Notes: generated from the letters alone by a model not told the origin. A stretch of DNA of 5,846 nt from a virus (IMGVR_UViG_2534681661_000011:1-5846), one strand, 5' to 3'. Shown: positions 279 to 5,846, counted from the stretch's first letter. A program made the numbers and translations.

Positions 279-335
279 ATGGCGTTGTTAATCACTAAAA
301 AATGCATCAATTGTGATATGTGTGAAATCAAATAA
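279..335 (+). pseudogene. yfhL: 5' fragment of a 4Fe-4S ferredoxin gene, truncated at the prophage junction (16 native codons, then 2 foreign codons and a stop)
   Basis: ATG at 279 encodes [16 protein letters not shown], which matches the N-terminus of E. coli YfhL as I recall it ([23 protein letters not shown]...). After codon 16 (gaa, 324-326) the sequence reads atc aaa taa instead of the expected Pro-Glu-Cys-Pro, so the gene is broken at about 326/327. Confidence 0.55.
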
Positions 336-523
336 AAACACATTTATTTTCATAGTGATACAGCAATGTGTTATTGAATGTGTTGTTGGATTTATGGTGC
401 AAAAAAATTTTGCATAAGTTCAGCAACACAAAGATCCCCCCCTTTTCTATAACGGTTCATTTGAGACTCCCCCTTGACTCCCTCTTCGAAATTGAAGACC
501 ATCACCTGTACATAATTACAGTC

Positions 524-802
524 ATGGATAATATTATGCGCAGAAAAGAGTCAAACGTTAGCAGTTTGCCGGAACTCACCAATTTTGAGGTAAGCTATTC
601 TCTGGTTACCAATGAAGTTTACTTGTCTGCATCCTTCACTGATAACATGGCCTGTATACCAAACTGGCCCTTACAAGAATTTCCGGATCAACTAATATGC
701 ATTTCTCGAGCAAAAGCTGTTGCCCTAATCGAAGAGCTCCAGAAGACCATCAACTATATGGATGCAGGAATAGTTCGAAGTTCAGGTAGCCTTCTCCAGT
801 AG
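524..802 (+). CDS. Hypothetical small protein (92 aa from the ATG at 524; alternative ATG at 536); may not be coding
   Basis: Sub-region of track ORF 368..802. The first 52 codons of that ORF run across a palindrome and poly-C tracts and look non-coding, so I start at the internal Met (MDNIMRRKESNV...). No good Shine-Dalgarno, several rare codons (aga, ata, cta, cga), no recognisable motif. Confidence 0.3.
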   Translation: MDNIMRRKESNVSSLPELTNFEVSYSLVTNEVYLSASFTDNMACIPNWPLQEFPDQLICISRAKAVALIEELQKTINYMDAGIVRSSGSLLQ

Positions 803-860
803 CTGACGAGTTTTATAATAATTTGATATATATATCGTTCAATATTAGCGAGTACTTATA

Positions 861-1508
861 ATGAGTGAATTTAGTAATCTTTTAAATAGCATACCTGGAT
901 GGTTATCCTCCTCCCTCACAGCTCTAGTTGGTACTCTTATTGGCGGATGGTTTACCCTAAAAGGAGTCACCCAACAAGCTAAGCTGTCTAAAGTAGAGAC
1001 AGAAAGAGAATCCCTTGAATTACAACTTTCAGTATTAAAAGGAGTTAAGGGAGAAGTTTTCACCCTAATCAATTTATATAATAAAAGGATGAAAACACAC
1101 ATTGATAATATAAAACCGGGACAAATGTTGATTCTCACATTCCCTGTAGGGGATGATAATTTCACATTCTATGAGCAAAATGCGAATGTCATTGCAAAAC
1201 TAAATGATTCTGCTAGAGACTCAATAATTAACATATACACATATTCACGCTCATTAATACAATCATTTAAAGGAAACAACAAACTCATTGAGGATTATGA
1301 AAAAATCCTTATTGGCATGGCAGACAATAACAAAGATAAAACCATGTATAAAAGATTACATGATGCAAAAATAAATGTAATGGTAGATTATGCTCAAGGG
1401 ATAAAAAATATTGATGCAGAGCTAAGAGATGCTGTCAATAAGGGATTCGACATTATCGACCAAGAAGTAAAGTCACTACAAATGAAATTAAACAAATTAG
1501 CTTCATAG
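861..1508 (+). CDS. Hypothetical membrane-anchored coiled-coil protein (215 aa); prophage cargo and candidate phage-exclusion or defence protein
   Basis: Clean ORF in a markedly AT-rich stretch compared with the flanking pin and tail genes (by inspection, not computed). One hydrophobic segment near the N-terminus (GWLSSSLTALVGTLIGGWFTL), then a charged Lys/Glu/Asn-rich region with heptad-like character. No catalytic motif recognised. Sits where e14 of E. coli K-12 carries mcrA. Confidence 0.7.
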   Translation: MSEFSNLLNSIPGWLSSSLTALVGTLIGGWFTLKGVTQQAKLSKVETERESLELQLSVLKGVKGEVFTLINLYNKRMKTHIDNIKPGQMLILTFPVGDDNFTFYEQNANVIAKLNDSARDSIINIYTYSRSLIQSFKGNNKLIEDYEKILIGMADNNKDKTMYKRLHDAKINVMVDYAQGIKNIDAELRDAVNKGFDIIDQEVKSLQMKLNKLAS

Positions 1509-1553
1509 AATGCTCCACTCCCTGTTCAATATTTTTACAAGCTTATCAGCCAG

Positions 1554-1586
1554 CCGTGGCACGTTCTTGCATACGACGTGCTACGG
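1554..1586. terminator. Stem-loop between the convergent cargo gene and pin; possible bidirectional terminator
   Basis: ccgtggcacg (1554-1563) pairs with cgtgctacgg (1577-1586), a 10-bp stem with one G-U wobble and a 13-nt loop, followed on the plus strand by tttcattta. Loop is long and the U-tract weak. Confidence 0.25.
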
Positions 1587-1588
1587 TT

Positions 1589-2143
1589 TCATTTATCTCC
1601 GACCGGAAACTTCTTATACAAAGTCGATACGCCAACATCATAAATGATCGCCACCTTCTGGCGAGGAACTCCTGATGCAATTAGTCGCCCGGCCTGCGCC
1701 CATTGTTCTGGTGTAAGTTTGGGACGACGTCCACCAATTCGTCCCTGTGCGCGAGCAGCTTCCAGTCCAGCTTTTGTTCGTTCAACAATCAGTTCTCGTT
1801 CCATTTCAGCCAGGGCACCCATCACATGAAAGAAAAAACGCCCCATCGGTGTGCTGGTATCAATTGAATCCGTCAGACTACGAAAGTTAATGCCTCGTTC
1901 GCGCAACCCCTCCACCAGCACGACAAGATGCCGCATACTGCGCCCCAGTCGGTCCAGCTTCCAGACAACCAGAGTGTCACCTGCCGATAATGTCCTAAGC
2001 AGTTTTTTCAGTCCCGGCCTTTCGGACTTTGTGCCGCTTATCTTGTCTTCAAAAATCAGCTCGCATCCTGCACAGTTCAGCGCATTACGTTGTAGATCTG
2101 TGTTCTGGTCATTTGTTGATACGCGTACATAGCCAATAAGCAT
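1589..2143 (-). CDS. pin: Serine-recombinase DNA invertase of the Pin/Gin/Cin/Hin family (184 aa)
   Basis: Encodes MLIGYVRVSTNDQNTDLQRNAL...GDTLVVWKLDRLGRS...MGRFFFHVMGALAEMERELIVERT...VSTLYKKFPVGDK, with the catalytic Ser in the VRVSTNDQ motif and a C-terminal HTH. I use the ATG at 2141-2143, which has an AGGGGGA Shine-Dalgarno 5-7 nt upstream, rather than the track's ATG at 2179, which adds 12 non-conserved residues. Confidence 0.95.
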   Translation of the reverse strand: MLIGYVRVSTNDQNTDLQRNALNCAGCELIFEDKISGTKSERPGLKKLLRTLSAGDTLVVWKLDRLGRSMRHLVVLVEGLRERGINFRSLTDSIDTSTPMGRFFFHVMGALAEMERELIVERTKAGLEAARAQGRIGGRRPKLTPEQWAQAGRLIASGVPRQKVAIIYDVGVSTLYKKFPVGDK

Positions 2144-2197
2144 GGTAGATCCCCCTGACAAAAGCAGGAATGATGCCATTTGCTCGTTATTTCTGCA

Positions 2198-2223
2198 TTT
2201 TCATAAACGTTGGTTTGGGAGAA
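2198..2223. other. Invertase crossover site, pin-proximal (26 bp)
   Basis: Plus strand ttttcataaacgttggtttgggagaa; its reverse complement ttctcccaaaccaacgtttatgaaaa shares the first 14 nt and the central AA with the site at 4123-4148 in inverted orientation. Matches the gix/cix/pix-type site architecture as I recall it. Confidence 0.8.
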
Positions 2224-2562
2224 GCGGCTAAAAGGAATGTAGGGACAGGGGCGAATCAGATACCTGATATGGGTAGCTTCACGCTTTCTGTTTCAGGTAC
2301 TGGATATCAAAAATTACCATCAGGTTTTATTCTTCAGTGGGGCTCAATCGGCGCACCAGGCATTGCACAGGATGTAGTAACCCATTTCCCGATTGCATTT
2401 CCAAACAGATGTCTGCGTGTTTTGGTCTCACAAGACTACACACCAGATAGCGGGGCTGTTGGTTATATTGCCTGTGCAGGTTTTAGTCCCGACCCGGTTA
2501 AATTTATATCCAGAGCCAGTACTCCTGGCCTCGGCGCTTCATTTTTAGCGTTAGGCTGTTAA
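2200..2562 (+). CDS. Silent alternative tail-fibre C-terminal segment (no start or promoter of its own); would be fused in-frame to the tail-fibre constant region after inversion
   Basis: Frame of track ORF 2170..2562. The coding part begins inside the crossover site: aac gtt ggt ttg gga gaa = NVGLGE, parallel to ENLGLGE in the expressed gene. Continues ...[29 protein letters not shown]..., which looks like a fibre tip domain. The leading MMPFARYF... of the track ORF is read-through of non-coding sequence. Confidence 0.65.
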
Positions 2563-2583
2563 TTTAGCTATATGGAGTGAAAA

Positions 2584-3024
2584 ATGAATTACATATATTC
2601 CGCGACTACAAACTCTTTCTATCCGCTGGAGATGAAAGAGGATTACACTCAAGCTGACTCATGGCCAGATGATGCTGTTGAAGTTGATGAGCAAGTGTAT
2701 ATTGAGTTTTCCGGATTACCGCCGAAAGGAAAAATCCGTATCGCTGGAGAAAATGGTTTTCCTGCATGGTCTGAAATTCCACCACCAACACATGAGGAAC
2801 AGATTGCTGCAGCCGAACTGGAAAAGCAGCAACTGATTAATCAGGCCAACGATTATATGAACAGTAAACAATGGCCTGGTAAAGCGGCTATTGGCCGGCT
2901 GAAAGGGGAGGAACTGGCGCAATATAATTTGTGGCTGGATTATCTGGACGCACTGGAACTGGTCGATACTTCCGGTGCGCCAGATATTGAATGGCCTACG
3001 CCTCCGGCAGTTCAGGCCAGATGA
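2584..3024 (+). CDS. Tail-fibre assembly protein (Tfa/U family, 146 aa), partner of the silent fibre variant
   Basis: GGAG 7 nt upstream of the ATG. C-terminus ...[27 protein letters not shown] is the conserved Tfa C-terminal motif. Lies directly downstream of the silent fibre segment inside the invertible region. Confidence 0.85.
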   Translation: MNYIYSATTNSFYPLEMKEDYTQADSWPDDAVEVDEQVYIEFSGLPPKGKIRIAGENGFPAWSEIPPPTHEEQIAAAELEKQQLINQANDYMNSKQWPGKAAIGRLKGEELAQYNLWLDYLDALELVDTSGAPDIEWPTPPAVQAR

Positions 3025-3601
3025 CATCCGGCGCGGTGCTGGTATCTGTTGCCGTCACCGCGTCAATGTAATCCAGCGCAGCGTTAAGTCGGGCGGTTTC
3101 TGCCTGCGTCAGATTCCGTCCGGCCTGCAATTTCAGCTGAATCAGACTAATGGAAGCCATTGCAGTATCAATCAGTGACTGACGCTGTGCTTCTGCCGCG
3201 CCTACTGCGGCGCTATGCTGTGCCACAGTATCTGTTACCCATTTCTCACCATCCCATTCATCGTATGGCGTTAACGGGGCGATAGTGGTTGTATTTTCAG
3301 GATAATCACCCGGAGCTGTGATTTCTTTCGATTCTCCTGTTTCGGTGCTATAGATGATTTCACCGCGATGGTCTGACACATATTCCCATGAGTTTAAATC
3401 TGCCGAACGGCAGATTGCATAACCAGCCTTATGTGTGCCAGGAGCATCTAAACAGGAATATGCAGGGATACCGACACCCACAGCAAGATATTCAGTTGAT
3501 GCAGAAATATACTCCCGTGTCTCACTGTCATAGTTATAAACGGTAATCTCTCCTGCCTTTGTGGCAATAAATTTACTATTCAAGATGGCGTTATACATCA
3601 T
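2996..3601 (-). CDS. Tail-fibre assembly protein (Tfa/U family, ~200 aa), partner of the currently expressed fibre
   Basis: Start ATG overlaps the stop of the upstream tail-fibre gene (ATGA, 3598-3601), consistent with translational coupling. C-terminus ...[30 protein letters not shown] is the conserved Tfa motif. Size and N-terminus ([11 protein letters not shown]...) resemble TfaE-type proteins from memory. Confidence 0.85.
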
Positions 3602-5452: not shown

Positions 5453-5846
5453 GTAAGCGTACAGCCTGAACCGTCTGGTCAGAATCTGACGAATTAGACA
5501 AAGTGGTGTCCACCAAATAAGTAGTGGGAACCAAAGTGTCAGATATGCAGAAAAATGTGACTCCCGGCAGGCGAAAAGGCAGCCCTAATTATCCTCCCGA
5601 ATTTAAACAGCAGCTCGTTGCTGCCTCCTGTGAACCCGGGATATCCATCTCAAAACTTGCTCTTGAAAATGGCATTAACGCCAATCTGTTGTTCAAATGG
5701 CGACAACAATGGCGCGAGGGAAAGCTGCTATTACCTTCTTCAGAGAGCCCCCAGCTACTTCCTGTGACTCTCGATGCAGCTGCCGAACAGCCAGAATCGC
5801 TCGCAGAGGACCCGAAAACCCTCAGTATCAGCTGTGAGGTAACGTT
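5453..5846 (+). mobile_element. Left end of an insertion sequence, probably IS66 family; continues beyond the window
   Basis: GTAAGCG at 5453-5459 matches the characteristic IS66-family terminus as I recall it, about 90 bp upstream of an HTH accessory gene. The exact boundary is uncertain without the other end. Confidence 0.5.
5545..5846 (+). CDS. IS-encoded HTH accessory/transposase protein (TnpA/OrfA-like), N-terminal part; open to the end of the window
   Basis: Encodes MQKNVTPGRRKGSPNYPPEFKQQLVAASCEPGISISKLALENGINANLLFKWRQQWREGKL..., the typical RR..S.EFK...V....G.S.........LL.KWR helix-turn-helix signature of IS3/IS66-type first ORFs. No stop within 100 codons. Confidence 0.6.
   Translation, partial: MQKNVTPGRRKGSPNYPPEFKQQLVAASCEPGISISKLALENGINANLLFKWRQQWREGKLLLPSSESPQLLPVTLDAAAEQPESLAEDPKTLSISCEVT

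Follow-up and report, generated by a model that had tools for sequence, protein, structure and literature searches.

A short open reading frame standing directly before a longer gene raises two questions, namely whether it is a gene in its own right and whether it works together with its neighbour. Such a frame occurs in a 5,846-nucleotide stretch of viral DNA (IMGVR_UViG_2534681661_000011), which was analysed at its full length and is referred to below as the window. The first-pass annotation placed a 92-aa ORF at 524-802, 58 bp before a 215-aa gene on the same strand, and considered both a two-gene module and a leader region that is no gene. The placement was correct: an ATG-initiated frame of 92 codons plus stop occupies 524-802 on the plus strand, nested in a longer GTG-initiated ORF of 144 aa (368-802), and the 215-aa ORF starts at 861.

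Window positions 340-1560 are 100 % identical to the chromosome of E. coli strain ETEC-2264, and the window leads from host DNA into a prophage through the following features.

Up to 223: 3' end of the host gene yfhH
279-326, plus strand: first 16 codons of the host gene yfhL (MALLITKKCINCDMCE), read from the sequence
327 to ~448, no strand: prophage attachment-site arm, delimited by megablast and by comparison with strain 85.0412
536-802, plus strand: small gene, the first prophage gene inward from the junction
861-1508, plus strand: 215-aa ORF, next after the small gene
1589-2143, minus strand: PinE serine invertase, on the opposite strand
1589-3601: invertible tail-fibre segment with PinE, holding oppositely oriented tail-fibre C-terminal fragments and tail-fibre-assembly genes
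Inward of the invertible segment: tail-fibre assembly genes, then a DUF2612 gene, then a baseplate-J gene
5460-5846 region: IS66-family element with TnpA starting at 5545, cutting the baseplate-J gene

The segment 279-326 is assigned to yfhL by the N-terminus of YfhL, and yfhH, yfhb and tadA are annotated as neighbours in the identical E. coli loci. The prophage junction lies at ~327, directly after yfhL codon 16. The attachment-site arm that follows is common to yfhL-integrated prophages with or without the small gene; megablast matches confined to the arm covered query positions 1-94 to 1-115 only, corresponding to window 340 to 433-454. The segment 1589-3601 belongs with the invertible host-range segments known from e14, Mu and P1; H10407 has a frameshifted pin gene and Nord1 a truncated one. 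The layout resembles the e14 end in E. coli K-12, where mcrA comes after pinE. The prophage copy in the window appears defective, its baseplate-J gene being cut by the IS66-family element. PGAP annotates an intact 1200-nt baseplate-J gene in ETEC-2264, whose full identity to the window was established for 340-1560. On the minus strand, the stretch 1555-1611 resembles the Shigella sRNA CssrB below the Rfam threshold (31.7 bits, gathering score 76, E=3.5e-4); it falls between the 215-aa gene and the 3' end of pin.

Homology and substitution patterns answered the first question. The 92-aa reading matched PHROG 17793 with E=1.3e-43, its residues 5-92 aligning with positions 1-88 of the 91 in the profile. 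A search of 5.8 billion proteins returned 58 homologues of 61-99 % identity, nearly all 87-88 aa long, from Escherichia, Salmonella and Citrobacter, and homologues of this length also occur in Yersinia prophages. The family is narrow, since only ~20 further relatives emerged when 1.8 billion cluster representatives were searched with a profile; a scan of genome contigs yielded one true relative only. The frame was intact in 36 of 39 viral-contig loci, the three exceptions being Salmonella bongori-type remnants. Loci in which the frame is broken beside an intact 215-aa gene, which had been named as the observation that would speak against a gene, were looked for, and the frame was intact in every locus also carrying the 215-aa gene.

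Among 26 distinct nucleotide sequences, the variable columns were distributed 34/18/74 over first, second and third codon positions (84 third positions in all), and pooled pN/pS was 0.17 in the ORF frame versus 1.46 and 1.76 in the two shifted frames, which is the pattern of a protein gene. Between genera, synonymous differences were saturated and dN was 0.1-0.2. The small gene is under strong purifying selection, and the ORF is almost certainly a real protein gene. PGAP annotates a 267-nt CDS equal to window 536-802 in O55:H7 CB9615 and Nord1, and nothing at this position in ETEC-2264, H10407 and most complete E. coli genomes; neither Pfam nor NCBIfam matched the 88-aa protein encoded by this CDS. 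A known RNA element at the locus was also considered and ruled out, as Rfam had no match over window 300-860. The leader alternative of the first-pass annotation was rejected on the in-frame pN/pS, the intact frame and the PHROG match, and a non-coding leader or attachment-site sequence left open by chance can be practically dismissed: the lack of PGAP annotation in most E. coli genomes, the weak Shine-Dalgarno sequence, the absence of a Pfam or NCBIfam family and the AT-rich region agree with it, but third positions are saturated while amino-acid sequence and length are kept across genera, a PHROG family is matched, PGAP annotates the gene in CB9615, Nord1 and others, and the Rfam search of 300-860 was empty.

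The following elements surround the start of the gene.

474-479, plus strand: -35 hexamer TTGACT, invariant in 12 diverged promoter regions whose flanks vary
497-502, plus strand: probable -10 hexamer GACCAT, inferred from its position with a 17-nt spacer
504-523, no strand: candidate LexA operator (SOS box) ACCTGTACATAATTACAGTC, core CTGT-N8-ACAG at 506-521
526-529, plus strand: ribosome-binding site GGAT, with GGA 7 nt before ATG 536
536-802, plus strand: small-gene CDS for an 88-aa acidic protein of PHROG 17793, called from profile match, homologues and substitution pattern

Sequence comparison places the true start at ATG 536, giving 88 aa, and not at ATG 524. Residue 5 of the 92-aa reading is where the homologues and the PHROG profile all begin. 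In place of ATG 524, E. coli Nord1 has CTG, and Salmonella lacks the codon; ATG 524 also overlaps the ribosome-binding site only 3 nt past the core of the LexA box. G526 is invariant, and relatives show GGAG or GAGG at this position. The earlier statement that no good Shine-Dalgarno sequence is present therefore holds for ATG 524 and fails for ATG 536, which has GGA 7 nt upstream. The earlier suspicion that the longer ORF reads through non-coding DNA was well founded, the sequence upstream of 536 being the attachment-site arm and the promoter.

The LexA operator, which had been overlooked in the first-pass annotation, is the most informative element of this region. The core CTGTACATAATTACAG (506-521) is a perfect CTGT-N8-ACAG box, 30 nt before ATG 536, and it overlies the expected transcription start directly 3' of the -10 hexamer. 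Of the 25 intact loci with upstream sequence, 23 have a CTG-N10-CAG box at -29/-30 relative to the ATG, and these come from E. coli, Salmonella, Citrobacter and the phages SEN34 and BUCT708; the two exceptions are YeP1 (-37) and Fostie (-66), whose protein starts later. It follows the invariant TTGACT by 26-27 nt. Alignment of the 12 promoter regions (64 % mean column identity) left as invariant islands TTGACT, both half-sites of the box, the Shine-Dalgarno guanine and the ATG. The -10 hexamer GACCAT of E. coli is weak (3/6), relatives having AATAAT or CATAAT, and a simple consensus promoter scan did not flag the small-gene promoter or its -10.

The window site scored 16.4 bits with a position matrix built from an uncurated set of E. 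coli LexA sites, on which known sites range over 12.9-27.0 bits; the controls 186 p95, Gifsy-2 dinI and K-12 dinI (left out of training) reached 27.5, 24.3 and 21.5. No other site of at least 12 bits was found in the 5.8 kb of the window. The equivalent site is the sole one in the whole genomes of Fostie (38 kb) and vB_EcoM-611R5 (42.7 kb) and the best one in YeP1, and sites of at least 16.4 bits occurred at 0.08 per kb across all DNA scanned, true sites included. From position, conservation and score, the small gene is very probably under LexA control, repressed by LexA and induced by DNA damage.

Comparison of the flanks indicated that promoter and small gene make up an autonomous accessory unit, or 'moron', at ~455-817. 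Its left boundary falls at ~448-455. On the right, homology with loci bearing other cargo ends at 817, 15 nt past the stop codon. E. coli 85.0412 has the same insertion site and attachment-site arm, followed by different genes (DUF2335) and no LexA box. Where the genome is circular or has been joined (SEN34, BUCT708-type contigs, Fostie and YeP1), the small gene is the first one across attP from int, at ~360-380 bp, and this is so for two integrase types of opposite orientation; in the prophage, the small gene consequently comes to lie at the far end, pointing inward. The unit is present in 129 of 5,426 complete E. coli genomes. About a fifth of the E. coli genomes with the same attachment-site arm are without the unit, and one strain has an IS3 inserted inside it; the unit is dispensable.

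The second question concerns the 215-aa gene, which belongs to a separate, exchangeable piece of DNA.

818-1508, plus strand: exchangeable cargo cassette, consisting of an AT-rich leader and the 215-aa gene at 861-1508, separate from the small-gene unit

Downstream of the small gene, the 215-aa gene is one content among several; at least eight other arrangements, including none, were found.

215-aa gene
207/281-aa gene
89- and 194-aa genes
90- and 359-aa genes
363-aa O-acetyltransferase gene (SEN34)
240-aa gene in reverse orientation
627-aa gene
dinI (Fostie, YeP1)
None, a converging invertase gene following with a 4-nt overlap (Citrobacter type)

The two-gene module suggested from the shared strand and the 58-bp gap could be a functional operon, such as a regulator or an antidote paired with an effector, and the terminator-free junction suits it as well. 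The pairing recurs in Salmonella contigs, and in E. coli the 215-aa gene was present in 80 complete genomes, in every one of them at this site and directly downstream of the small gene. This complete co-location is read as the mark of a cargo hotspot. The small-gene unit occurs in 129 complete E. coli genomes versus 80 for the 215-aa gene, and 10 viral contigs carry relatives of the 215-aa protein (64-72 % identical) that have neither the small gene nor a LexA-like box in the 2 kb upstream. Copies from E. coli and Salmonella are 94-96 % identical in the 215-aa gene and 90-95 % in its 58-bp leader, whereas they are 78-86 % identical in the small gene and ~55 % in its promoter region. This discordant divergence across position 817 means that small gene and cargo have separate histories and that the cassette moved independently. 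PADLOC matched neither protein. Because the genes assort independently, as both the alternative arrangements and the 10 loci lacking the small gene show, the proposed module was not supported and is very improbable as a functional operon; the small gene can be regarded with high confidence as independent of the 215-aa gene.

Transcription is a separate matter. No terminator-like site was found in window 300-1650, and hence none between the two genes, so SOS-driven read-through into the 215-aa gene is likely here. Judged from the sequence, co-transcription of the two genes in the window is possible as read-through and not as a conserved operon.

The 215-aa protein itself had no Pfam, NCBIfam or PADLOC match. 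It is basic (pI 8.6) and, apart from a single hydrophobic segment at the N-terminus, rich in helix, and its 64-72 % identical relatives occur in other phage contexts; because it sits at a hotspot for prophage cargo, a role in defence or exclusion is worth considering. A short (TA)n run at 824-834 in its leader differs by 2 bp between E. coli and Salmonella copies and falls in a possible promoter region of the cargo gene. A link of the small gene to the Pin invertase was also considered, as the genes abut in Citrobacter and BUCT708 loci, and was rejected, since no invertase stands at this place in SEN34, Fostie or YeP1.

The 88-aa protein has a pI of 4.7, a mass of 9.9 kDa and no hydrophobic segment. 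AF2 modelling from a 24-sequence alignment gave one confident model of five, with a mean pLDDT of 79, the other four being poorer. Its layout is a disordered N-terminus followed by strands at 13-22, 27-35 and 52-57 and a helix at 58-82, and an inter-strand loop bears the conserved motif DNMAxIPxWPxxEFPDQ. The structural match is the eukaryotic COMM domain with a modest Z, so that a COMM-like beta3-alpha fold is predicted. Foldseek searches against PDB and BFVD gave nothing below E=0.02, and a sequence-profile search of the PDB with the 88-aa family gave chance-level matches only. With the COMM domains of the COMMD proteins of the Commander complex and of bacterial COMMD-like proteins, the 88-aa protein shares 6-16 % identity, which indicates no sequence relationship; the likeness is a structural analogy drawn from the predicted model, and dimerisation is predicted by analogy.

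The location and the predicted fold both bear on a role in recombination, in which the protein would be an accessory factor for integration or excision, an SOS-timed modulator of Int/Xis recombination or of the attachment-site arm. Its constant place as the first gene across attP, and in the window ~150 bp from the attachment-site arm, would suit such a factor. However, the integrases it accompanies are of two unrelated types and point in opposite directions, an Xis/AlpA is already annotated in each phage, the predicted fold is neither winged-helix nor another DNA-binding excisionase fold, and prophages with the same attachment-site arm and insertion site manage without the gene. Moreover, lambdoid phages usually carry their accessory genes between the tail fibres and attP, so that this position is a customary one. 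The recombination role is quite improbable.

An antirepressor role is the chief rival of the reading preferred below; in it, the LexA-controlled product, like Tum of 186 or GfoA/GftA of Gifsy, would bind the repressor of its own or a co-resident prophage and lead to induction. A small acidic protein behind a LexA box outside the immunity region is what Tum, GfoA/GftA and AntC have in common (PMC3121763). In Fostie and YeP1, dinI follows the small gene directly, which is the antirepressor-then-DinI order of the split tum of PSP3 and Fels-2 (PMC3121763), and the box before the Fostie gene is the only one in that genome. SEN34 and BUCT708 have short, GtgR-like repressors without an S24 domain, SEN34 possessing two paralogous ones (127 and 133 aa, 45 % identical), and antirepressors are able to act in trans on non-cognate repressors (PMC3121763).

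The antirepressor idea was compared against the repressor types of five phages and was downgraded. The repressors of 611R5, which represents the prophage type of the window, and of YeP1 are HTH+Peptidase_S24 proteins, self-cleaving and needing no antirepressor. SEN34 and BUCT708 already carry a second LexA-boxed small-gene locus: in the nin region of SEN34, a second strong LexA box is followed by dinI and a 77-aa gene (8176-8812 of the analysed sequence), and in that of BUCT708 by a 63-aa gene (14450-14683 of the analysed sequence). This layout is that of the Gifsy arrangement, and the two loci are probably Gifsy-type antirepressor systems. The small gene occurs in phages with two integrase types and with myovirus or siphovirus tails, and proteins 81-95 % identical to one another sit beside unrelated repressors, integrases, replication modules and tails, a poor fit to specific repressor recognition. 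The 88-aa protein could not be aligned by BLASTP with Tum, GftA or SEN34_55, and its hhalign probability for the GftA family was 0.4 %. Known antirepressor families are mutually unrelated, so missing homology is compatible with the function; with no sequence or profile similarity to Tum, GftA and SEN34_55, antirepressor activity is a candidate function only and an unlikely one.

BUCT708 (OM816834) was deposited as a Stenotrophomonas phage. Its small gene is 58 % identical and stands behind an enterobacterial-type LexA box, and its integrase is 64 % identical to those of viral contigs bearing the small gene. Its host assignment may be worth a check.

The preferred reading is an SOS-controlled moron with a promoter opened by loss of LexA, a small acidic protein with a proposed host target, and incidental read-through into the cargo; taken as a whole, it is reasonably likely. 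In the undamaged lysogen, host LexA would keep the putative sigma-70 promoter (TTGACT, 17 nt, GACCAT) shut. Upon DNA damage, RecA-stimulated cleavage of LexA would open the promoter, and the cell would then make a small, acidic, soluble 88-aa protein with a predicted COMM-like three-strand-plus-helix fold, which may form dimers and bind proteins. Its target would be a conserved host component of the DNA-damage response, following the timing logic of phage DinI copies. In the window, the SOS-triggered transcript would continue into the 215-aa cargo gene, the coupling being incidental.

A host target is taken as the most likely because near-identical proteins sit in phages with unrelated repressors, integrases and tails. 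We infer it by exclusion, and a host-directed role in the SOS response is a plausible proposal with slightly less than an even chance. It is put forward by analogy with the phage DinI homologues, SOS modulators that bind the RecA filament and are likewise small, acidic, LexA-regulated and found in the same genomic neighbourhood. The 88-aa protein has no sequence similarity to DinI and no match to the Pfam DinI family, and the secondary-structure order of DinI differs from its own.

A further comparison concerns BssS (YceP, PF13991), a small enterobacterial 'biofilm regulator' of similar size (84 vs 88 aa). In both, the predicted order is strand-strand-strand-helix and strands one and two fall on the same residues; the BssS model is of low confidence (pLDDT 61). 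Five of eight divergent family members matched PF13991 in one register and below the Pfam gathering threshold of 27 bits, P0075 being the best (21.4 bits, E=2.8e-4) and the other four reaching 12-14 bits; the window protein itself had no PF13991 or other Pfam match. Alignment of the family with BssS by hhalign gave P=0.0037 and a probability of only 8.9 % over 28 columns, and the HMM scores between family and BssS lay near the top of shuffled controls, barely above them. Both were found nearly exclusively in Enterobacterales, the one outlier being the phage deposited as a Stenotrophomonas phage, and both neighbour LexA-controlled dinI in some genomes. In E. coli K-12, LexA-controlled dinI is followed on the same strand, after 286 bp, by bssS (2202-3027 of the analysed K-12 sequence), an order that mirrors the pairing of small gene and dinI in Fostie and YeP1; unlike the small gene, bssS has no LexA box of its own.

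The relationship of the 88-aa family to BssS is no more than suggestive. A fuller proposal, in which a novel LexA-controlled family with a COMM-like dimer fold and distant kinship to BssS acts with DinI on a host DNA-damage component, is doubtful, somewhat more so than the antirepressor. If it held, the chromosomal dinI-bssS pair of enterobacteria would stem from a phage SOS module by domestication, and BssS would acquire a connection to the SOS response that can be tested.

The locus is of a known kind, that of LexA-regulated prophage accessory genes, and the protein family itself is unstudied; a literature search found no paper describing it. A gene under clear purifying selection is thus missing from the annotation of most complete E. 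coli genomes. The LexA operator would place the small gene, and probably also the cargo downstream, under DNA-damage control, which bears on the timing of prophage accessory genes such as those for the 215-aa membrane-type protein and the SEN34 O-acetyltransferase, and on the behaviour of lysogens under SOS-triggering antibiotics. To our knowledge, the LexA-controlled small phage proteins described so far (Tum, GfoA/GftA, AntC and DinI copies) are all induction switches or modulators. A further, unrelated LexA-controlled family that is genetically tractable would make a reasonable target for study; the possible link to BssS would add to its significance, though the support for that link is weak.

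Among known systems, the closest in design are the LexA-controlled SOS operons of phages, namely p95-tum-orf97 of 186, tum/dinI of PSP3 and Fels-2, and dinI-gfoA/gftA-irsA of Gifsy. The small-gene unit differs from them in its position, lying beside attP where the known operons lie in the nin region or at the cos end, and, unlike the Tum and Gifsy systems, it also occurs in phages that have self-cleaving repressors or already possess a Gifsy-type operon. In both, a LexA operator covers a promoter outside the immunity region and the first product is small and acidic. An adjacent dinI accompanies some members of the small-gene family (Fostie, YeP1), and an unrelated accessory gene can follow downstream, orf97 in 186 and the 215-aa gene here.
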